The notes under the pieces were generated by a model. The model searched no databases, was not told the origin of the DNA, and saw nothing but the letters and a program-made list of their open reading frames with translations. A stretch of 64,000 bases of DNA, taken from Escherichia coli (GTDB taxonomy: Bacteria; Pseudomonadota; Gammaproteobacteria; Enterobacterales; Enterobacteriaceae). The stretch is taken from NCBI RefSeq assembly GCF_013315695.1, contig NZ_CP054355.1; one strand, 5' to 3'. A program made the translations under genes and the position numbers. How positions within the stretch are numbered: position 1 is the stretch's first letter; each line of letters starts with the position of its first letter. Below, piece after piece: positions 24,688 to 46,029 of the stretch.

Positions 24688-24720
24688 GGGCTCCGTTTGG
24701 GAAACGGAAAATATTGTACG

Positions 24721-27708
24721 TTAAGGCTGTTTTTTGTACTGACTGACATCAACTGCTCGCAAAGGACGATACTTCCCTTCAGCCAGCTTCTTATTGTTTT
24801 TCCAGATATAGTCCCCTGTCAGATTAATGTGCTCCCAGCCCAGCGGAGACAAATGTGACAACAATTGCTCATTAATATGTAGCCCTTTCTTTTTCAGCAG
24901 GTTAATGGCGTTTTCTATATATACGGTATTCCACAAAGTGATTGCGGCAGTGAGCAGCGTAAGCCCACTGGCGCGGTAACTCTGGTTTTCAATACCACGA
25001 TCCCTTATTTCTCCCAGACGATGCATGAAGACAGCTCTGGCAAGGGCATTCCGGGCTTCCCCTTTGTTCAGACCTGCCTGAACCCTACGACGAAGCGCCG
25101 GATCGCGGAACCAGTCCAGCATGAACAGTGTTCGCTCAATACGACCAATTTCTCTTAACGCCTTAGCAAGGCCATTCTGTTTCGGATAACTGGTCAATTT
25201 TTTCAGCATCAGAGAAGCGGTCACTGTTCCCTGTTTTATTGAGGTCGCCAGTCTCAGAATTTCATTCCAGTGTATTTTTATCTCTTTGATATTCAGGGGG
25301 GTTGTGGAGATAATTGACTGTAGAGCAGGATAGTTATCAGCTTTACCTTGAATAAACAAACGTTTGTCATGCAGATCCCGGATCCTTGGGGCAAAAGCGA
25401 ATCCCAGCAGATGCATTAGTGCAAAAACATGCTCCGTGAAACCTGCTGTATCGGTGTAATGTTCCGTTATATCAAGGTCACTTTCGTGATACAGAAGACC
25501 ATCAAGTACGTGGGTGGAATCACGAACACGACTGATTACTTTGGTATAAAACGGACTATATTGATCTGAGATATGCGTATAAAACTGCACCCCAGGTTCC
25601 TGACCGTACTTCAAATTAACCTGACCGGCATAGCGCCCATGACTGCCAACCCTAAAATTCTGGCCGTCAGAGGATGAGGTGGAACCGTCTCCCCATAATG
25701 CCGCCAGCGGTCGTGACTTCTGGGCATTAACCAGTTCTGCCAGTGCAGCAGAGTACGTTTCATCACGGATGTACCATGCTTGTATGTTTTCCAGCGAAGC
25801 TCGTGTGGTTCCCGGACAGGACTCTGCCATTTTTTCCAACCCTAGATTGATGCCGTCCGCCAGGATAGTGGTTAGTAGTAAACGATTATCCTGAGGACGG
25901 ATTAGCGGATTCTTAAGATGAGTAAAATGTCGCGAGAAGGCAGTCCATCGCTCGACTTCATCAAGTATCTCTGTAATTTTGGGGTGCGGTAGCATGTTGT
26001 AAATCAGGTCGGCCAGGGGAGAGACTGTTGAAGGAACGCTGTTATCCAGTGGGGTGATCTTTACACCTTTATCTGAAATATCCACATCAGGAAGCTCCCC
26101 TGCGACAGCCATTGCGTTAACTTCCTCCAGACGGGAGGCCAGTAGAGTCAGTCTGGCATTAAGATAAGCCCCGCATTCTGTGCCAACAGGTAAATTTAAT
26201 AGGTTATTATTTAATAACTTTTCGAAATCATCGTTAGGCATAAGATAATCATCAAAGTTTTTGTAGCGCCGGGAGCCCCTGACCCAGATATCACCCGCCC
26301 GCAGCGCCCCCTTTAGCTCATTCATTGCGCAAATTTCATAGTATTGTCGGTCAATGCCTGAGGGGGTGACCACCATCTTTCTCCAGCTCTCAGGAATGAA
26401 ATCCAGTGGTGCCGATGCAGGAACCTTTCGTAGCTGTTTACGGTACATATCACGAATAGTTTCAAGGGCATCATTAAGCGGCAACGCTGCCGAAGTGGCT
26501 CTCAGTTGCAGGGCCGATAGAAAACGAAAAGAATATTTGCGCAATGTACTGAATTTTTCGGTAATAAGATGAAGCGGCTCAAAATTATCCTTACGTGCAA
26601 GAAGCTTTGTTTCCTCCAGACTGGCGACAAAATCGTCCCACGGTAACACTCGTTCAATAGCAGACAGAGGATCTTCGCCTGCATTGCGTGCATCCAGGAT
26701 AGCCTGGCCAACAGAAACATACTGACGTAACTTTTGCTGTATCAACTTGCCCGTTTTCTGAAGACGCTCAGCCTGCTGATGTTTTGCCCGACTGAACATG
26801 CTGCCTAGAATACGTTCATGCAGTTCTATAATTTCATCAATGATTGTGGCTCTGGCCTCAGTCAGTACACAGACCATCGTTGCGTATCGACGAGCAGGGG
26901 AAAAATCAGCCAGATCGCGACTGCTCATTTTGCGGCCCTCACGCGCGAGTTTCAGCAATCGGTTCTGGTGAACGGTTCTCTCCACTCCTTCCGGCAGCGC
27001 CAGAGCTTCAATAGCGTTAAGGCGGTCAATGTGTTGCAGGACATTCTTTCCATTGATTTTCCCTGGAGGTTGAAGCAGCCACGTCAAACGGGATATTTGT
27101 TTTTCATTTGTCACCAACAGGGCATCAAGCGCAGATTTATGCGTGATATCAAGGTGCGCATTCAGCGTTGTATACACCGTTTTATCACCCAGTGTCATTG
27201 CTTCTGCACAGGTACGTTCCAGAACATCAATGCCTGGAATAATAATTCGCTGTTGATGCAGGTACTTTAGTAACTCCTCTGCGATAAGTATGCCTCTGTC
27301 CGTTCTGGTAGACAGAGGGAGCAGATGCCGGATACATTCTTTCTGAAGTGCACCGTTAAAGGCTTTCAGTTCAAGATATCGATAAAGTTCCCTCATATGC
27401 TCACGTCTGGTGGTATCACGACCGGAAACGTATTCCTGCCAAAGTTCTGCTGATAACTTAAGTCGAGCGCCAATGGTTTTTAGCAATTTTGCGGGTGGGG
27501 ATGATTTTTTATCCGGGGCAAACCCAATACTTTTCAGATAACAGAGAAGAACGGCAAAACCAAACCGGCTGGCAGGTTTACGGTGAGCATTGATAATTGC
27601 CAGATCCTGCTCACTGAAATACGTCATTCGAGTCAGTGTTAACTCATCGTCTGGCAATGCCAGTAATGATTCTCTTTCCGATAGAGAAAGAATCTGCCTC
27701 CTTGCCAT
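24721..27708 (-). CDS. tnpA: Tn3-family transposase TnpA
   Basis: 995 aa; stop codon lies inside the terminal IR as in Tn3-family elements. Confidence 0.8.
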   Translation of the reverse strand: MARRQILSLSERESLLALPDDELTLTRMTYFSEQDLAIINAHRKPASRFGFAVLLCYLKSIGFAPDKKSSPPAKLLKTIGARLKLSAELWQEYVSGRDTTRREHMRELYRYLELKAFNGALQKECIRHLLPLSTRTDRGILIAEELLKYLHQQRIIIPGIDVLERTCAEAMTLGDKTVYTTLNAHLDITHKSALDALLVTNEKQISRLTWLLQPPGKINGKNVLQHIDRLNAIEALALPEGVERTVHQNRLLKLAREGRKMSSRDLADFSPARRYATMVCVLTEARATIIDEIIELHERILGSMFSRAKHQQAERLQKTGKLIQQKLRQYVSVGQAILDARNAGEDPLSAIERVLPWDDFVASLEETKLLARKDNFEPLHLITEKFSTLRKYSFRFLSALQLRATSAALPLNDALETIRDMYRKQLRKVPASAPLDFIPESWRKMVVTPSGIDRQYYEICAMNELKGALRAGDIWVRGSRRYKNFDDYLMPNDDFEKLLNNNLLNLPVGTECGAYLNARLTLLASRLEEVNAMAVAGELPDVDISDKGVKITPLDNSVPSTVSPLADLIYNMLPHPKITEILDEVERWTAFSRHFTHLKNPLIRPQDNRLLLTTILADGINLGLEKMAESCPGTTRASLENIQAWYIRDETYSAALAELVNAQKSRPLAALWGDGSTSSSDGQNFRVGSHGRYAGQVNLKYGQEPGVQFYTHISDQYSPFYTKVISRVRDSTHVLDGLLYHESDLDITEHYTDTAGFTEHVFALMHLLGFAFAPRIRDLHDKRLFIQGKADNYPALQSIISTTPLNIKEIKIHWNEILRLATSIKQGTVTASLMLKKLTSYPKQNGLAKALREIGRIERTLFMLDWFRDPALRRRVQAGLNKGEARNALARAVFMHRLGEIRDRGIENQSYRASGLTLLTAAITLWNTVYIENAINLLKKKGLHINEQLLSHLSPLGWEHINLTGDYIWKNNKKLAEGKYRPLRAVDVSQYKKQP

Positions 27709-27874: not shown

Positions 27875-28516
27875 ATGTTCATCAGAGCTTATTTAAGGGC
27901 GTCAACAGAAGATCAGTTTGCAGATCGAGCAAAAGAGATGCTGGAACAGTTCGTCCAAGAACGGGGGCATAAAATTGCCAGTTATTATCGGGAGAACATA
28001 AGCGGTACAAAACTTGACCGTCCGGAACTGAAACGCTTACTGATGGACAGTCACCGTAATGATATTTTGCTGGTCGAGCAGATAGACCGCCTGACCCGAC
28101 TGAGTAACAGCGACTGGATAACGCTGAAAAAGCAGATAGAACAACACGAACTGCGGATTGTCAGTCTGGATGTTCCAACATCATGGCAAGCCCTGTCAGA
28201 TAAAGATCCTTCACAATCAGATCCGATTACCCGCGCAGTGATAACTGCAATAAATAATATGCTTATAGACCTGATGGCCGCGATGTCGCATAAGGACTGG
28301 CTGAGTCGTCGCCAACGCCAAAAACAGGGAATTGAACGAGCTCATACGTTGGGTAAATACCGGGGAAAACAGGCCGATCAGGAACGTCATCAGAAAGTGT
28401 TGTACTACAGACAAGTAAAAAAACTCAGCATTAGAGAAACAGCAGATGCAACGGGCTACAGCACTTCGCAGGTTTGTCGCATTCAGGCTCTCTATAAAGA
28501 GGTTAAACCTGATTAA
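27875..28516 (+). CDS. tnpR: serine recombinase (resolvase TnpR-like)
   Basis: MFIRAYLRASTEDQ N-terminal serine-recombinase motif. Confidence 0.7.
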   Translation: MFIRAYLRASTEDQFADRAKEMLEQFVQERGHKIASYYRENISGTKLDRPELKRLLMDSHRNDILLVEQIDRLTRLSNSDWITLKKQIEQHELRIVSLDVPTSWQALSDKDPSQSDPITRAVITAINNMLIDLMAAMSHKDWLSRRQRQKQGIERAHTLGKYRGKQADQERHQKVLYYRQVKKLSIRETADATGYSTSQVCRIQALYKEVKPD

Positions 28517-28959
28517 AAAACAGCCTTAACGTACAATATTTTCCGTTTCCCAAACGGAGCCCTGCTAGCCTTTTCGTAATCATGCCATTGGAGATCATCT
28601 GGATTGATGTTAGGCATGACGTCTTGGCTGTAAAGCAAAAAATCAAGTGAGTCATCCATGATCTTCTCAAAACGCTTACTGCGGTTGTTTCTGTCACTAA
28701 TAGAGCCCGCCTGATACCACCTTTCCGACAACTGCCGATATCGAAGGAAGTGCTCATCCTCTTTCAGTTGATGAAACTGGTTCCTGATTTGTGCATCAAG
28801 CCGAATTGCCAGACCAGTAAAATCAGGTAACACAACCTTATGAGGGGCATTTTTGGGAGAAATCAGAGAAATGAATTCAGAAACCTGCATATCCTTGCTC
28901 TGAGGCCCGTAACGTTTATCAGAGCGGCGGGTGCCAATAAAAAAGCTTTCAATCGTCAT
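28513..28959 (-). CDS. hypothetical protein; 3' end replaced by Tn3-family IR sequence
   Basis: 148-aa ORF whose last ~16 codons are encoded within the transposon IR. Confidence 0.3.
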   Translation of the reverse strand: MTIESFFIGTRRSDKRYGPQSKDMQVSEFISLISPKNAPHKVVLPDFTGLAIRLDAQIRNQFHQLKEDEHFLRYRQLSERWYQAGSISDRNNRSKRFEKIMDDSLDFLLYSQDVMPNINPDDLQWHDYEKASRAPFGKRKILYVKAVF

Positions 28960-31934: not shown

Positions 31935-32015
31935 TGGAAACGCCGGGAGCGGGGAAAACTTGCTTTTTCCCGTTTCCGGGGTTGGACAACTGAGCAACGC
32001 GAAGGCGTCAGCTAC
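31935..32015. repeat. ~80-bp repeated element, copy 1 (upstream of repA2)
   Basis: ggaaacgccgggag...ccggggttggacaacTgagcaacgcgaAggcgtcagc; second copy at 44645-44745. Confidence 0.55.
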
Positions 32016-32598
32016 GATGTTCCGGGGACTGCTGATCAGCCCCTGTTGTATTCAGCCATTCTCCGGTCATCTGCAGCAGTTTTCTGGCATCGTGGCTTCT
32101 GAGCAACGGAATACCAGCCTGCCTCAGAACCTCTTCCAGAAGAATATCCCGGCGTCTGCGTTCCGGTCGTAAATGGCTGGCATCATCCAGCTCTACTGCT
32201 GCAACAATACTGAACGAACGCCGCTCAACGATAACCACATCAACATGCCACTGAGACACCATCCTGAATAACTGCCACCACTGGCGTGATCGTGGCCGGA
32301 TATTCCCGTTCAGCTGGACGATATCCGCGACCCGTACCTGCGGACACAGATACCACCGCTTCATATCCACAATTCTGAACAGTCCTTTCATAAAACTGAC
32401 TTCCCTTTCTGTCAGCAGCGTCTTCTGACGTTGCCAGTATTCACCGCCGGACAGTATTCGCTCTGCATCACCGGTCCGTATACCTGCCGCATGCAACTGC
32501 ATCAGCAAAGGAGAATGCTGATTTACACTTCTGAGGATAATCCGGATAAGTAACGCTGCAATAATCAGAACAATGAGAATAAAAATAATCAGCTTCAT
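32008..32598 (-). CDS. membrane-anchored protein (DUF2726/NERD-like), unknown function
   Basis: 196 aa, N-terminal TM helix; domain assignment from memory only. Confidence 0.4.
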   Translation of the reverse strand: MKLIIFILIVLIIAALLIRIILRSVNQHSPLLMQLHAAGIRTGDAERILSGGEYWQRQKTLLTEREVSFMKGLFRIVDMKRWYLCPQVRVADIVQLNGNIRPRSRQWWQLFRMVSQWHVDVVIVERRSFSIVAAVELDDASHLRPERRRRDILLEEVLRQAGIPLLRSHDARKLLQMTGEWLNTTGADQQSPEHRS

Positions 32599-39200: not shown

Positions 39201-41559
39201 TCGCACTGTCACTGACGGAATGCCCGGGCGTTTCCACCCAGCCGTTCTCCAGCTTCAGTGCCGTGAACGGTGAATCAGCCACAGGCAGGGTGGCCGGTTC
39301 AGCCCGCCCCGGCACAACAACCGTCATCGCATCTTCACTGACGGATGCCACCTGCAGGCGGTCACCGCCGGAGACGCGGAGTCCGGGAATTTTCCCTGTC
39401 ACCCTCAGTCGCTCGCCGTCTGCCACCGGCATTTTTTCCGGCCGGAACAGCGACCAGCTGCTGTCCAGGGAGGAAATACGCACCACCTGCGTTTCGCCCT
39501 GCGCATCCCGCAGGGTCAGGCTGTGACTCTGCGCCGTCACCCGGTCGATAACATAGCGGTCATGACTGCGTGTCTCCGGGTTCCACTGCTCCATCACCAT
39601 CCCCGGTCGGTACATATCCCGCAGATAACGGCTCCGGCTGTCCAGCCAGACCGGTGACAGGGCGGTCATGGTCACCTCCGGGTGTCCGAGCACGCCCTGT
39701 GTTTTCAGCTCACTGCGAATGGCCTGTGTCAGTATGGCCTGTTCCCGTACCCCGCTGACCTGTGCCACGCTCTCTTCTCCGGCTTTCACGCTGGCCGCAA
39801 AATCTCCGGCCAGCCGGTCATAGCGGACATTCCGGTCCGGTTCACTGATGATGGTTGCCGGTCGCTGTTCTCCGCCCTGCCAGCGATACGTGTTCACCCC
39901 GGTATCCTTCATGGCCATCAGCGCACTGCCTGTACCGGTTCGCTGCCCGCTGTCGGTTATCAGGACCTGTACGTTATGACGTGCGGCACCGTCCAGCAGG
40001 GTTAACGTCTCTTTCAGGGAGAGTTTTTCGCCCTGGTCGACGATAACAGTACTGCCCGGCGTGAAGACCATGCCCTCCTGCAGCTGACGACGTCCGGTTA
40101 TCAGCTCACCGGACAGCCGTTCATCCTGCTTCAGGTTCATCTGCGAGCGACGGTCAGCAGCGATAATCTGCACCTCCCGCCCCTGCTCCCGGGCCATCAT
40201 GACCAGTTCAGCCACCCGCTCACGCTGCCCGGCTGCACCGCCCTGCCCGGACACAATGGCCAGCGACGGACGGTCCTGTGCCAGAACACTGACCGCATCG
40301 CTGTAACCAGCCGTCCGGGGGACACTTTTCTCCGGATGTACGGTCACCCGGTTCTGTTTCATGATGTCACGACTGAGTGCCCGGACGGACAGCTCATCGA
40401 GCACATGAATTCCTGATGTGAACAGCCCCTTCTCACGGTCGAGGGGGATAAGCTGCTCACGGCTGATGGCCTCATCGATACCGGCGCGTGCCCGTTCAAT
40501 CACACCATTTTCCGGCGGCAGTATGCCGACCGTCCTGGCCAGCACGTCCGTATACGTGAACTGCACTTTTCGTTCACTTAATCCGGCAATCGCCTGTGTC
40601 ACCGCCTGCTGCACATCCGGCCCGTCCTGTGAAGCAGGCCCGGGCGCCTGCGTGCGGATCTCCGCACGCTGATCCGCCGCGTCACGATATGCCCGGATGT
40701 CGAACCCGGTTTCCTTCAGCGTCTGCATCCATTCAGCCATTCTGATTTCCGGATCGACGTGCTGTTTGGATTTACGCGTATCCAGTGCCGCCACATCCCG
40801 GGATTTCAGCGAGGCGTCTTCCCCGACGGCCTCCCGGATAGCCTGTGAGCGTCCGGAAAAGGCCTCCACCGGTACGCCCGGCATCTCCCACATACCGTGC
40901 TTACCCACCACTTCGGTTTCATAGCCCAGCGCCTCAACCTGCTCTTTCAGTTTTTCCCGGTAGAGCCTGCCAAAGGCAATCTGATTAGCGTACACATTCT
41001 CAATGAACCCCGTTTTCCCCACTTTGTCACTGCTCAGTGTCTTCCACTCACCGTTATGCTGCGTGACATTAGCCACCACCGCATGCGTGTGTAACTGTGG
41101 TTCCTGATCGCGACTGGTGTCGTGGTTAAACAGTGCCATCACCAGATTACCGGTCAGCACCGTTTCTGACTGTCCGTCCGTCATCACCCGTGTGGAGGCC
41201 AGCGCCTCCACCTGACGAACAGCAAAGTCCACGGCCTGGTTATGTGCATCAATCAGGCGCTTATCGCCACCTAACATGGCCATCATGGAGACACTTTTGG
41301 GGGCGGAGAAGGTCAGGTCGTAGCCGGGACGATGCTTATTACTGCCATCCTGCATGCGGCTTAGATCCGCTCCGTCCGGCAGCCTTCCCTCCAGAAGACG
41401 GGTAAAAACATCCTTATCGACACTGCCCTGCAGTCCCAGCTGTTCAGCCCCCCTGCCGGCCCAGCGTTCTCCCATGCTGCCCAGTACATAGTAATTATCC
41501 TTGTCGGTATAATAGTTACCGGCACTTCCGGCCGATCTGACCTGCGCGATACTCATCAT
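36289..41559 (-). CDS. traI: relaxase/helicase TraI
   Basis: 1756 aa, N-terminal relaxase and helicase Walker motifs. Confidence 0.9.
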   Translation of the reverse strand: MMSIAQVRSAGSAGNYYTDKDNYYVLGSMGERWAGRGAEQLGLQGSVDKDVFTRLLEGRLPDGADLSRMQDGSNKHRPGYDLTFSAPKSVSMMAMLGGDKRLIDAHNQAVDFAVRQVEALASTRVMTDGQSETVLTGNLVMALFNHDTSRDQEPQLHTHAVVANVTQHNGEWKTLSSDKVGKTGFIENVYANQIAFGRLYREKLKEQVEALGYETEVVGKHGMWEMPGVPVEAFSGRSQAIREAVGEDASLKSRDVAALDTRKSKQHVDPEIRMAEWMQTLKETGFDIRAYRDAADQRAEIRTQAPGPASQDGPDVQQAVTQAIAGLSERKVQFTYTDVLARTVGILPPENGVIERARAGIDEAISREQLIPLDREKGLFTSGIHVLDELSVRALSRDIMKQNRVTVHPEKSVPRTAGYSDAVSVLAQDRPSLAIVSGQGGAAGQRERVAELVMMAREQGREVQIIAADRRSQMNLKQDERLSGELITGRRQLQEGMVFTPGSTVIVDQGEKLSLKETLTLLDGAARHNVQVLITDSGQRTGTGSALMAMKDTGVNTYRWQGGEQRPATIISEPDRNVRYDRLAGDFAASVKAGEESVAQVSGVREQAILTQAIRSELKTQGVLGHPEVTMTALSPVWLDSRSRYLRDMYRPGMVMEQWNPETRSHDRYVIDRVTAQSHSLTLRDAQGETQVVRISSLDSSWSLFRPEKMPVADGERLRVTGKIPGLRVSGGDRLQVASVSEDAMTVVVPGRAEPATLPVADSPFTALKLENGWVETPGHSVSDSATVFASVTQMAMDNATLNGLARSGRDVRLYSSLDETRTAEKLARHPSFTVVSEQIKARAGETSLETAISLQKTGLHTPAQQAIHLALPVLESKNLAFSMVDLLTEAKSFAAEGTGFTELGGEINAQIKRGDLLYVDVAKGYGTGLLVSRASYEAEKSILRHILEGKEAVTPLMERVPGELMETLTSGQRAATRMILETSDRFTVVQGYAGVGKTTQFRAVMSAVNMLPASERPRVVGLGPTHRAVGEMRSAGVDAQTLASFLHDTQLQQRSGETPDFSNTLFLLDESSMVGNTDMARAYALIAAGGGRAVASGDTDQLQAIAPGQPFRLQQTRSAADVVIMKEIVRQTPELREAVYSLINRDVERALSGLESVKPSQVPRQEGAWAPEHSVTEFSHSQEAKLAEAQQKAMLKGETFPDVPMTLYEAIVRDYTGRTPEAREQTLIVTHLNEDRRVLNSMIHDAREKAGELGKEQVMVPVLNTANIRDGELRRLSTWENNPDALALVDSVYHRIAGISKDDGLITLEDAEGNTRLISPREAVAEGVTLYTPDKIRVGTGDRMRFTKSDRERGYVANSVWTVTAVSGDSVTLSDGQQTRVIRPGQERAEQHIDLAYAITAHGAQGASETFAIALEGTEGNRKLMAGFESAYVALSRMKQHVQVYTDNRQGWTDAINNAVQKGTAHDVLEPKPDREVMNAQRLFSTARELRDVAAGRAVLRQAGLAGGDSPARFIAPGRKYPQPYVALPAFDRNGKSAGIWLNPLTTDDGNGLRGFSGEGRVKGSGDAQFVALQGSRNGESLLADNMQDGVRIARDNPDSGVVVRIAGEGRPWNPGAITGGRVWGDIPDNSVQPGAGNGEPVTAEVLAQRQAEEAIRRETERRADEIVRKMAENKPDLPDGKTELAVRDIAGQERDRSAISERETALPESVLRESQREREAVREVARENLLQERLQQMERDMVRDLQKEKTLGGD

Positions 41560-43784
41560 CAGAAATCATCTCCCGGCTCAACATCCTCCCCACGCTCCCG
41601 GTGCACATTAATGTTCACCTCTTCACGACGCTGCATCTGCTGCTGGATGTCCGGATGATTTTCCTGTTGCCATGCCTCATAAGCGGCCATATCCACCACT
41701 TCACCGGATTCACTGATCCCGGGTGGCAGTTGCTGTTCCATCTCTTCTTCCGGTTTCATTTTCAGCTCCTGCTCGATCCCCCCTGCCGGAACACTCACAC
41801 CTGCATCTGACTTCTTATCATTGATGACAGAAGACACTGGCTGTTGTGGCTGTTGTGGCTGTTGTGGCTGTTGTGGCTGTTGTGGCTGTTGTGGCTGTTG
41901 TGGCTGTTGTGGCTGTTGTGGCTGTTGTGGCTGTTCAGCCTGAGTCACATCTTCTCCGGAGGCAACCTCCGGTTCAAAGAGGCTGGCCATCTGACGACCT
42001 TCTGCTTCCCTTGCGGCAAGTACGGCACTCAGACGGTTCTCCATTTCCGGGTTGATGTCACGCGGAATAAACTCCGGAGCGACCTTCGGTCGTGCCTGAT
42101 ATTTCAGAGAGAGTTTGACTGCCGGATACGGTCCGGGCAGAGTGACATAGCAGGTCAGATCCGGCAGAGACTGAATGTCGGAATAACTGACCAGCGTCTG
42201 ACGCTCCATATCCTTACCGGTCGATACCCCGTCACGTACCGGGTCAGCACCGTAGGAATACTGCTCGCTGGCTTTCAGGTGCTCTTTCTCACCAATCTCA
42301 CCGGCAGCGAACTCTGCAATCTTATGGCTCGGGGAACGGAAAAAAGCACGGGTGTTCATGACGTCAAACAGCGTGGCCGCCGCTTTCTCACCGTAGATAT
42401 CTTCCAGCTGGGCATAGGACTGGATACCAAACACATAACAGCCACCGAACTTACGGGCTTCCGGCAGGATCTCCACCAGGTCCGGCAGTTTGTGTAACGT
42501 GGGTAACTCGTCACAGAAAAACCACACACGACGGTTACGGTTTTCTCCCATTGCCAGCAGACCACGAATGGCAATGGACAGCCACATGGAGATCACCGGC
42601 TTCAGGGAGGCATGGGTGTCGGCGTTCGACGAAATAAACAGCCAGCCGTTTTTCTGATCTTCCCGGACACCACGCATCCAGTCACGGATGGTAAAAGACT
42701 CACCGTTATGCTCAATCCCCTGCAGGTAACGGATGGCTTTCACGTAGTTGGTCAGCACAGCACGGATGGAAATCGCCGTTTTCTCAATTTTCTCTTCCAC
42801 CAGGTTGGCTGCCGGTGAATTACGCAGGAAGGTACGCAGTTTTTCAATTTTGATGGAAAGCAGTGTGTCCACCAGTTTGCTGTAGCTGCGGTTGGGGTCA
42901 TTACGCATCAGGTACGCCGCTTCCGCAAAAATGGTACGTCCTGAACCCTGCCAGAACGGGTCCTCTTTTGTACCCATAGGGATCAGAGTATTTGCGGTAT
43001 TATCAAAATCCGGCTGTGTCAGGCACTCCTTCCACAAATCCCATGCGGCACAGCGGGCATCCAGCGGATTCAGGATTTTATCGATGGAGGGATCATAGTA
43101 ACTTTTAACAAATTCCCCTGAACGGTCATAAATCACCACCATATCACCGCGCTGACGGGCATAGTTGGCCAGACGACGGATAACCTCCGACTTACCGGCC
43201 CCGACCGTGCCGTGCAGACAGAAGTTCTGGATTTCGGAATCCCGGATAATCGGCAGGTCGCCAATCCGGATATCGGAGTCCTTGCCGTCTTTTTTCAGCA
43301 TCCGGGCCACTTCTTTCGGGTTATCCGTCAGCTGACGCCCGCCGGTCACCTCATTTTCACTCTGCTGTTTCCCCTGATGCCCCAGAATCCAGGAGACAAC
43401 AAAGAAGGTGATCAGGCAAATAACCAGGGCCACGACAGACGCCAGAACGAATGCAGACCATAGCTGCTCTCCGCACCAGATCATATATTTATCATGCAGT
43501 ACCTGGGCAGCGTTCATCCGGAAGGTTTTGCCGTAATACTGGATCTCATAGACCGGCTGGGATTTTATTAAATCCCGCATGCCTTCCAGTGACGTACACC
43601 ACCAGTAAATACAGCCGTTGATAAACGTCTGCCAGCTTATTTTTACCCATAAGACCAGACCAATGAGGATCCAGAAAAAAATAAACAGGCAGTAAAGCAT
43701 GATATTGGCGATCTGGCTGAACATGCGGATACGCATGGACGCAATCTGACCGCCCTGGGTCATATCCTTTGCGTTAAAACTCAT
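41559..43784 (-). CDS. traD: type IV coupling protein TraD
   Basis: 741 aa, N-terminal TMs, Walker [10 protein letters not shown]-terminal (QQP)10 repeat. Confidence 0.9.
41841..41930. repeat. perfect 9-bp tandem repeat x10 (ctgttgtgg) encoding the (QQP)n tract of TraD
   Basis: Counted directly in sequence. Confidence 0.9.
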
Positions 43785-43834
43785 GATGAAACTCCGGGAA
43801 AATCTGGAACAGGGCAGAAAAGGATGATGTGGGG

Positions 43835-44572
43835 TTAATTCACAGAAACAGACCAGGTGTACCCTGTATGCCGGTGGTGATGCCCGCCTGCAGTCCTGCC
43901 GGAAGAGACCTTCTCTGTAACAATGTCAGTCAGGCGCAATACTTCAGACCAGTCACTCCCATGCGGAAACTGGATCTGAATAAAAAGGCGTACCCGTTCA
44001 CGGTGATCCAGAACTGTGTCCGGTTCATAAAAACGGCCACTGTCAGGAGAAACACAGGACGTTTTATTGATGAGATCATACTTATCGGCAGGAGACTGCG
44101 ATGAAATCGCCCAGGTGATATTCTCCGCCTGGTGGCCATCAATACGACTGCTCCCCGGCGTCCATGCAATTTCCTGCGCACTCGCCACGATGATCTCCCT
44201 GGAAACTTCAGCCAGCTTTCTGGGTGTACAGAATACCGGTGCCAGCACACACAGGGACAACAAATTACAGCTGACCGCCTCCGGTTTAAGCAAATTGCTC
44301 CCGGATTTTTCAGGAAAAGATATTTTTGTCAGTATTTCAGTTAATTCCTTATGCCTGAGAGAATTAATAAAGTACATGATAAGCATCATGAGAAACAATA
44401 TAACAATAAGCCCTCCGATAACCACTAAAAGGTCAGTATCAATATTATTGCTGTACAGATAGTCTTTAGTGGTCACTGTATTATCCTGTATCACCGGGGG
44501 GTATTCAGTTACAGGCTTCTCAGTAAATTGATTATTCTCACCAACATATTCAGCGATATTGTCTGATGTCAT
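43835..44572 (-). CDS. hypothetical single-pass membrane protein inserted between traT and traD
   Basis: ATG at 44572 preceded by GGAGAAAG; one TM helix ([22 protein letters not shown]); no recognisable domain. Confidence 0.5.
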
Positions 44573-44644
44573 AATGACTTTCTCCGGAAGATCCCGGCTT
44601 CGCCGGCAACACTTCACGGTCGCACAAAGAATTTGCACAACCGC

Positions 44645-44745
44645 TCAGTGTTTTCATATTTATTTCGGAAACGCCGGGAGGTGACAAAATTTATTTTGTT
44701 ACATCCCGGGGTTGGACAACGAGCAACGCGAGGCGTCAGCAAGGA
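44645..44745. repeat. ~80-bp repeated element, copy 2 (between traT and the extra gene)
   Basis: Conserved flanks shared with 31935-32015, different internal hairpin. Confidence 0.55.
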
Positions 44746-44774
44746 GGCCGGTCAGATCAGCCTCCTGACGAGGT

Positions 44775-45506
44775 TCAGAGAATATTTGCGATTGATTTGG
44801 CCAGTTGGTCTTCGAGAACAGGCTTCGCCTCTTCAAATTTCAGGTTAACCTTGTTCGCATTTGAAACCACACGGGTCTGGTATTTATGCTGGTTACCTGT
44901 TTCAGTACTGGTCTGAATTTTCGCACCTGATGTGCCCTGACGCAGGGCGGCAACATTATCCGTTGTCACCGTTGCCTTAGTACGCTCTGCAATCTGTACA
45001 TCCGTGATCATGGTATAGTTCACATCTTCCACCATCGCATCTGCAGCCATACCCACCAGACCAGCAGCAAGGCCTACACCGAGTGTGGCACCGGCAGAAT
45101 TTGAGTTATAGCCGGTAATACCGGCACCTAACGCTGCACCAACAGCTGCGCCTTCATAACCACGGTTCAGCCATCCCTGAGACTCCCGCAGATCCATCTT
45201 ATCAGCCTTCAGCACATTCGCCTGAATCCAGTAGTAGGCTTTATCCGGAGAAGTCACCACCTGATATCCTTTTGCTTTCACAGCATCAGCAATTTTGCCC
45301 TGCAGCCCACTCATGTCTTTATCAGACGTGTTTTTGATCTGCAGAAATACCGTGCGTTCGCTGGCGGGTTCAAGCCAGATGGTCTCACTCATCTGAGTCT
45401 TCACCTCAAGGTTACGCTTCTTGATTGCTGTGCTCATCGCACCACACCCTGAAAGGGCCAGAGTGGAACTGACCAGTGCAACCATCATCAATTTTTTTGT
45501 TTTCAT
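44775..45506 (-). CDS. traT: surface exclusion lipoprotein TraT
   Basis: 243 aa, lipobox LSGC, matches F TraT. Confidence 0.9.
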
Positions 45507-45519
45507 CCAAAATATCCTT

Positions 45520-46029
45520 TTAACTAACAGACTCTTTTTTGAATAGTCCTATTACTGAGGCTATAGCTGAGAGATTATAACGATTTATATCTATGGTATA
45601 CACCAAGAAAAATAATATGAATGTAATCATTAGTGCAAAAACATATAAGATAGAATGCATAAACGAAACCATAGAAAAAACAATCAAAAACAACAAAATA
45701 TATGTCTTACTCTTAGAATACATAAAATTTATTATTTTTGAATCCTTTCTGAAACTATCAGGAATCGCAAGGTATAACATCATTCCATTTGTAATAGCCA
45801 CAAAAAGCAGGAACCCCATCATTCCACTAGCACATATATCAAAGCCAACATCCCTGACATCACTTTTAACCGATACTAAACGCAGAAAAGTTGGCCATAA
45901 TAAAACCCATAAAAACACATAAGTTCCCGGCTTTATGACTTGTAATAATGATGGGATATTAACACCCTCTACAGAGAGTACCTCCTTTAGTTTCTGCATC
46001 TCCATTTTTATATCATAGTGAGTGATCAT
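45520..46029 (-). CDS. traS: entry exclusion protein TraS
   Basis: AT-rich hydrophobic 169-aa ORF between traG and traT. Confidence 0.65.

Follow-up and report, generated by a model that had tools for sequence, protein, structure and literature searches.

In a 64,000-nucleotide (nt) stretch of Escherichia coli DNA (hereafter the window), we focused on a gene of the plasmid transfer (tra) operon that lies between traT and traD and corresponds to yhfA of plasmid R100. The coding sequence occupies positions 43835-44572 of the minus strand, from an ATG at 44572-44570 to a TAA at 43837-43835, and encodes a protein of 245 amino acids (aa). Direct reading of the minus strand places a Shine-Dalgarno sequence, GGAG, at 44582-44585, 9 nt 5' of the start codon. 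An upstream GTG, which would give a protein of 267 aa, was discarded as the start because the N-terminus MTSDNI is common to the homologues and RefSeq takes the ATG. The original prediction, made from the letters of the window, described a 245-aa single-pass membrane protein with its own ribosome-binding site (RBS), and the list of open reading frames (ORFs), the GGAG and a hydropathy peak all agree with that description. Upstream lies traT (44775-45506) and downstream traD (41559-43784), which starts 50 nt past the yhfA stop codon; both are on the minus strand and were placed from the ORF list and the R100 annotation. The window holds no second copy (paralogue) of yhfA, and an Rfam search of 43500-45000 gave no match. 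The evidence below shows yhfA to be conserved and fast-evolving, a non-essential gene in the distal part of the tra operon of F-like plasmids.

The gene had been taken for unrecognised cargo inserted into the operon, a view that did not hold. Over 1,101 base pairs (bp) across yhfA, R100 (NC_002134) and many further IncFII plasmids match the window at 100% identity. R100 has a coding sequence of 245 aa at the matching position, listed in RefSeq as WP_000199905.1, hypothetical protein; it is the same protein in the same traT-traD position, and we found no difference between the two. Two further proteins (P0001 and P0002) are 97-99% identical to the R100-type protein and have cluster members in the thousands. 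The paper on pEntH10407 has a truncated copy under the name "conserved hypothetical protein YhfA"; it describes this ORF as homologous to R100 YhfA and F as having no similar ORF (PMC2762410). Titles of AlphaFold DB entries for the family read "YhfA" or "Conjugative transfer protein". The chromosomal YhfA of E. coli is a different protein, of the OsmC family, and neither Pfam nor PDB searches gave an OsmC match for plasmid YhfA. Homologues occur in three lineages, as described below. We conclude that yhfA is already known as a standard R100-type arrangement, catalogued as YhfA or as a hypothetical protein, and that the window gene is very probably a conserved tra-operon gene of R100 and no novel cargo. 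For this window the gene is ordinary, and its interest is general rather than specific to the stretch. The original prediction would be contradicted by a conserved, characterised component of the operon. The gene is conserved, but it is not characterised: we found no functional study of YhfA in the searchable literature, in which PMC2762410 alone mentions the gene.

The distribution of yhfA is wide in number and narrow in taxonomy. A tblastn search found it in 1,931 of the 72,556 plasmids in PLSDB, and it is present in 1,209 of 5,426 complete E. coli genomes, where 1,397 of the 1,401 copies are plasmid-borne. Searching 1.84 billion representative proteins with phmmer returned 53 matches, all to the same protein or its fragments. 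Two profile searches added just a 230-aa E. coli branch and a Klebsiella branch. Across 5.8 billion proteins, the profile searches gave 200 family members, all labelled hypothetical, and those with a named source come solely from Escherichia, Salmonella, Klebsiella or Serratia. None of the 200 has a Pfam domain of its own, and the few Pfam hits sat in chimeric or fused calls. A scan of species-representative genomes with a narrower alignment found only two loci, on a contig of a Lachnospiraceae metagenome-assembled genome and on an Acinetobacter contig, both of which are probably stray E. coli plasmid sequence.

We then considered whether the ORF is a gene at all. Pairwise ratios of non-synonymous to synonymous substitution rates (dN/dS) were 0.30 and 0.25 against orthologues with 88% and 85% protein identity, which are carried by one Escherichia fergusonii plasmid and one E. 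coli plasmid. By region, the first 100 codons had ratios of 0.33-0.50 and the C-terminal 145 had ratios of 0.21-0.27. In addition, tblastn found a full-length protein in 1,794 (93%) of the 1,931 PLSDB carriers. With dN/dS at 0.25-0.30 and the frame intact in most carriers, we conclude that yhfA is a real gene and no chance frame.

YhfA is built of three parts. Codons 1-46 (44435-44572, minus) encode an acidic, disordered and hypervariable tail, predicted to be periplasmic, with a net charge of -6, two lysine or arginine residues, a predicted local distance difference test score (pLDDT) below 50 and mosaic alleles. Codons 47-72 (44357-44434, minus) encode a single transmembrane (TM) helix, where the 19-residue Kyte-Doolittle window reaches its maximum of 3.2. 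Codons 101-245 (43838-44272, minus) encode a conserved alpha/beta domain, predicted to be cytoplasmic, that carries the motifs PG-x-[SN]-R-x-D, a conserved tryptophan and GG-x6-GY[TS][WF]. In a full-length AlphaFold2 (AF2) model, residues 1-45 are disordered, residues 46-85 form one long continuous helix, and the folded C-terminal domain follows; a weaker hydrophobic stretch at residues 101-115 is modelled as a buried beta-strand and not as a second helix. We also modelled the domain by itself from an alignment of 11 sequences from all three branches of the family, which gave a pLDDT of 79.9 and a predicted template modelling score (pTM) of 0.79, with four of the five models at 76.8-79.9 and the fifth at 60.7. 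The modelled topology is beta-alpha-beta-beta, a disordered loop, and beta-alpha-beta-beta again.

The orientation of YhfA in the membrane was predicted from its charges. The tail has two lysine or arginine residues, compared with five in the 28 residues past the helix, and the other two branches show a similar balance. The positive-inside rule would place the C-terminal domain in the cytoplasm, which agrees with its cysteines, as these vary between branches in number and position. It is thus somewhat more probable than the reverse that YhfA is N-out/C-in, with a periplasmic tail and a domain of about 145 residues in the cytoplasm behind a basic linker. A role in envelope modification, one of three suggested in the original prediction, is unlikely with the conserved domain predicted to be cytoplasmic.

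Searches for a recognisable domain returned nothing, as the original prediction had found. The window protein has no match in Pfam, NCBIfam, PADLOC, PHROGs or PDB sequence searches, and Pfam likewise matched none of seven family members; these searches were negative for the other branches of the family too. PADLOC-DB v2 gave 0 families for YhfA at E values up to 1, and the 230-aa relative had only a marginal match in its TM region (E 0.0058); the second suggested role, phage defence, is accordingly without support from PADLOC. PHROGs v4 gave 0 families. The TraS profile PF10624 was not matched by YhfA, which has one TM helix where several are expected of TraS, nor was the TraT profile PF05818, and the N-terminus of YhfA has neither a signal peptide nor a lipobox. 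A Foldseek search of AFDB50 with the structure found, beyond the family, only uncharacterised proteins, at E values of 2e-6 to 6e-4 and 10-16% identity. An AlphaFold DB cluster from Pantoea, Enterobacter, Citrobacter, Kosakonia, Phytobacter and Pseudomonas syringae may hold remote relatives of the C-terminal domain; its proteins are all unannotated, and several are longer than YhfA (up to 447 aa).

According to the original prediction, traT is followed directly by traD in F, which we verified. In F (NC_002483) a 252-bp gap with no annotated gene separates the end of traT (89551) from the start of traD (89804). A global alignment of the traT-traD regions showed that the first ~190 bp 3' of traT are conserved between F and the window, that a window segment comprising yhfA and its RBS (43795-44591, minus, with approximate boundaries) is replaced in F by ~55 bp of unrelated sequence, and that homology picks up again at the traD RBS, past this ~800-bp window-only segment. 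A pSLT-like plasmid also lacks yhfA and has the first ~181 bp after traT in common with the window. Thus yhfA is not universal in F-like plasmids. To survey the gap more broadly, we searched PLSDB with the ORF flanked by 400 bp each of traD and traT. Among the 4,166 records that matched, 1,743 had the complete R100 arrangement, and in a spread sample of 60 the F-type gap of ~252 bp made up roughly 40%. In several otherwise identical plasmids the match was split, with IS26 or ISVsa5 annotated in or beside traT-yhfA-traD, and in NZ_CP010174 the yhfA match itself is interrupted by ~830 bp with IS26 annotated beneath.

Other genes also occupy this interval. One plasmid carries the 230-aa yhfA relative and then a DUF2726 gene between traT and traD, another (from Escherichia marmotae, L003) has the 230-aa relative, a DUF2726 gene and vapBC upstream of traD, and further F-like plasmids have tetratricopeptide repeat (TPR) and small hypothetical genes, or an unrelated lipoprotein-like ORF, in the gap. 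Where the yhfA family is present, its slot lies in the tra operon 3' of traT or traS and 5' of traD, mostly adjoining traD, as seen in the window, R100, L005, L006, L011 and the IncFIIK plasmids. One of these, the E. coli plasmid L006, has yhfA adjoining traD with no traS or traT annotated. Both L006 (58-369) and the E. coli plasmid L011 (2661-2969) have a reverse-oriented gene of ~102 aa after traG and no annotated traS; in L006 that gene is annotated as a heavy-metal-binding domain, and a 262-aa hypothetical gene stands at the traT site. As for vapBC, RefSeq annotates such a toxin-antitoxin pair between the traD and traI genes of F, on the opposite strand (L004 4967-5592), and it is the same pair that lies between DUF2726 and traD in the E. 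marmotae plasmid. There is no gap between traD and traI in R100 or the window.

A distant homologue is a 229-aa protein of Klebsiella IncFIIK and pKpQIL-like plasmids (WP_013023831.1, WP_004198206.1), encoded between traT and traD. It resembles YhfA in slot, architecture, motifs and N-terminal mosaicism, but it is only ~21-23% identical to window YhfA, and single-sequence HMMER misses it. Profile comparison with hhalign matched it to the YhfA profile over residues 89-243 with a probability of 96.2% and an E value of 2.5e-9. This branch, from Klebsiella and Serratia, is present in 2,323 PLSDB records, 2,188 of them from Klebsiella. Some Klebsiella contigs (L014-L018) have the order traG-traS-yhfA homologue-traD without traT, so at this locus traT is more dispensable than the yhfA homologue in those plasmids. 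In L019, other small ORFs follow the homologue. Altogether three branches, namely R100/IncFII, Klebsiella IncFIIK and a third E. coli IncF lineage, share the slot at ~21-29% identity, and 18 columns of the C-terminal domain are invariant across them. Because three deeply diverged branches share one locus in three diverged tra backbones, parsimony favours long residence of yhfA, with loss in the F and pSLT lines, as a simpler history than three independent insertions. There are no yhfA remnants in the F and pSLT-like gaps, so it is on parsimony that the choice between loss and gain depends.

Within this shared slot yhfA diverges much faster than its neighbours. Between the window and the IncFIIK operon, identity is 85% for TraT, 70% for TraD and 68% for TraI, compared with 22% for YhfA. 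The tail and helix (the first ~85-100 residues) come in several essentially unrelated types joined to near-identical C-terminal domains, in both the R100 and the IncFIIK branches. The GC content of yhfA is 36.7% in the first 300 nt and 51.6% in the remainder, a contrast consistent with mosaic origin. We also asked how these exchanges relate to alleles of the neighbouring genes. Comparing L016/L017 with L018, the TraG C-terminus is 100% identical, TraS 100% and TraD 99%, whereas the N-terminal part of YhfA is 46% and the C-terminal part 80% identical. Comparing L009 with L018, the corresponding values are 61% for the TraG C-terminus, 27% for TraS, 100% for TraD, and 42% and 94% for the two parts of YhfA. 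The idea that the N-terminal yhfA allele tracks the TraS/TraG exclusion type was discarded, as these comparisons disagree with it. We conclude that yhfA is its own island of recombination-driven diversity, independent of TraS/TraG and of TraD alleles.

Expression of a family member can be read from published RNA-seq data for the IncFIIK plasmid pBIC1a, which gave, in reads per kilobase per million mapped reads (RPKM), 231 for traS, 282 for traT, 8 for a hypothetical gene between traT and traD, 7 for traD and 10 for traI (PMC6286996). The hypothetical gene (NZ_CP022574, 35457-36146) belongs to the YhfA family, being 92% identical to the L009 homologue. By these values the yhfA homologue is expressed like the distal transfer genes and unlike the exclusion genes. 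In the window, a GC-rich hairpin lies directly past the traT stop codon (44742-44766, minus). It was identified by RNA folding, is conserved in F and is terminator-like but has no U-tract; the 121-nt region around it has a fold z-score of -3.7.

We propose the following explanation for yhfA, which we hold tentatively and with somewhat less than even confidence as the best one overall. In transfer-competent cells, yhfA may be co-transcribed with traD and traI, a step in which our confidence is low. YhfA would then work next to the coupling protein TraD, on the cytoplasmic side of the membrane, with the variable tail as the portion exposed to a variable partner. It could serve as an accessory factor or lend specificity, either when DNA is transferred or when plasmids compete, although we regard this particular assignment as doubtful. 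Several points weigh against the proposal. The topology is predicted by the positive-inside rule, and the expression values are those of a single IncFIIK homologue on a repressed plasmid other than R100. F transfers efficiently without yhfA, so YhfA cannot be needed for TraD function, and the TraD of F is 94% identical to that of the window. Many frameshifted forms of 213 aa occur across assemblies, and some plasmids have annotated insertion sequence (IS) elements in the locus or next to it, so yhfA is dispensable in many settings. Finally, closeness to traD may just mark where the operon tolerates extra genes, because the same gap elsewhere holds DUF2726, vapBC and TPR genes.

The third role suggested in the original prediction was exclusion. 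YhfA would be a third exclusion or conflict determinant, acting in plasmid-carrying cells as recipients or targets; its tail would recognise a transfer component of an incoming related plasmid or a pilus-dependent phage, and its cytoplasmic domain would block entry or establishment. We regard this too as possible but not probable. The hypervariable, exposed tail beside traS and traT speaks for the idea, as does the position of yhfA within the hypervariable exclusion zone formed by the TraG C-terminus, traS and traT. Unrelated tail and helix alleles recombined between near-identical backbones are typical of specificity and conflict genes, YhfA changes at the pace of TraS (22% identity compared with 85% for TraT), and the low GC of its first 300 nt is like that of traS (31.8%). 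However, exclusion genes need expression in every plasmid-bearing cell, and the transcript of the IncFIIK homologue is ~30-fold below those of traS and traT, at the level of traD and traI. The tail type is also independent of the TraS and TraG C-terminal type (as in L005 as well), which further weakens the case, YhfA matches neither TraS or TraT in Pfam nor a PADLOC defence model, and the N-terminal dN/dS of 0.33-0.50 is not above 1.

It is improbable that yhfA has no current function and is a decaying or selfish passenger in a permissive operon gap. F and pSLT-type plasmids manage without it, YhfA diverges very fast, unrelated genes occupy the gap in other plasmids, and the 213-aa forms and IS elements mentioned above point the same way. 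Nevertheless, a dN/dS of 0.25-0.30 and intact frames in 93% of PLSDB copies argue against decay. The architecture and the 18 invariant C-terminal-domain residues are kept at ~21-29% identity, and the domain model is both confident and self-consistent.

The remaining alternative involves a ~77-nt repeat, which the original prediction had noticed as an ~80-bp element with its second copy upstream of yhfA. The repeat is real. Copy 1 (44667-44740, minus; inner hairpin 44670-44713) lies in the conserved 3' region of traT, as determined by blastn, alignment with F and RNA folding, and copy 2 (31936-32012, minus; blastn and R100 annotation) lies at the 3' end of a DUF2726 gene and overlaps its last 5 nt. 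A blastn search against the window found the copies 80.5% identical over 77 nt (E 6e-12). Both therefore stand at the 3' end of a minus-strand gene. The conserved sequences GTTGTCCAACCCCGG and CCCGGCGTTTCC flank the hairpin in copy 1, in copy 2 and in a copy from F, with stem bases that differ while pairing is kept. Fold z-scores for the repeat-containing stretches tested were -3.3 to -4.8, and Rfam has no match at copy 1. The link to yhfA did not survive, as the repeat stands 3' of traT not only in R100 but also in F (86% identity; L004 2582-2667) and in the pSLT-like plasmid (81%), and the latter two are without yhfA. We therefore discarded the repeat as part of yhfA and assign it to the 3' region of traT; F-like plasmids may use it as a 3'-end or terminator-type element.

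The DUF2726 gene of the window (32008-32598, minus, R100 annotation) encodes 196 aa with a hydrophobic N-terminal stretch resembling a TM helix, and its product is 40% identical to the relative encoded directly after the yhfA homologue in two IncF plasmids (L002, L003). It is improbable that YhfA is one half of a two-gene module with this membrane-anchored, nuclease-like protein, split in R100 with the repeat marking the rearrangement: the homologue is directly followed by DUF2726 in two E. coli and E. marmotae plasmids, R100 and the window carry a DUF2726 gene of their own that is 40% identical to that partner, and the second repeat copy lies at its 3' end, but DUF2726 genes are found in more than 5,000 PLSDB plasmids, far above the number of yhfA carriers, IncFIIK plasmids have a yhfA homologue with no adjoining DUF2726, the repeat follows traT in F, and neither protein matches a PADLOC model. 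A specific link between yhfA and DUF2726 was set aside as unsupported.

Several further observations concern other parts of the window. In traD, positions 41838-41942 form a perfect 9-bp tandem repeat, in which seven 51-nt windows in 9-nt register are 100% identical, and which encodes a (QQP)n tract close to the TraD C-terminus. TraD is 741 aa long in the window but 738 aa in R100, and otherwise near-identical plasmids thus differ in the number of repeats. The window traS (45520-46029) has 31.8% GC compared with 49-60% in its neighbours. Its product is only 26-29% identical to those of traS in F and in an E. fergusonii plasmid, the TraT of the latter being 100% identical, and the R100 copy of traS carries only the RefSeq label "hypothetical protein". 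A perfect 48-nt inverted repeat has arms at 24688-24735 and 28515-28562, 3,779 nt apart, and probably bounds a transposable element.

In E. coli and Klebsiella, genes for antibiotic resistance and virulence travel mainly on F-like plasmids, whose tra operon ranks among the most thoroughly studied systems of bacterial genetics. Even so, yhfA is still only a "hypothetical protein" gene, although ~4,000 plasmids of PLSDB carry it and so do 22% of complete E. coli genomes; this neglect likely stems from its absence from the reference plasmid F. A conserved domain, predicted to be cytoplasmic, combined with a recombining hypervariable tail is the pattern expected of a specificity or conflict gene. 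The family might represent a new functional class in F-like conjugation, one that acts from the inner membrane in specificity or conflict, has a new fold on the cytoplasmic side and sets compatibility groups through a swappable periplasmic tail, although we consider this rather unlikely. If true, YhfA could, for instance, determine a third kind of exclusion or modulate which DNA the coupling protein TraD accepts, and such a factor would be present in about one in five sequenced E. coli and in most Klebsiella IncFIIK resistance plasmids.

Known systems offer two comparisons. The fertility-inhibition factors PifC of F, FipA of pKM101 and Osa of pSa are dispensable plasmid products that are believed to target the coupling protein. 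Their likeness to YhfA lies in the proposed role only, and no search found similarity of sequence or fold. The other comparison is with the entry-exclusion proteins TraS of F and Eex of SXT/R391. These are small proteins of the inner membrane that evolve fast and fall into discrete specificity alleles, and their genes lie in the same region of the operon. YhfA shares the inner membrane, the operon region, the fast evolution and the discrete alleles with these exclusion proteins. It differs from both in having no sequence relation to them and in its predicted design of one helix and a folded 145-residue cytoplasmic domain, and it differs from TraS in that its alleles do not follow TraS/TraG and that a homologue is expressed at the level of traD.

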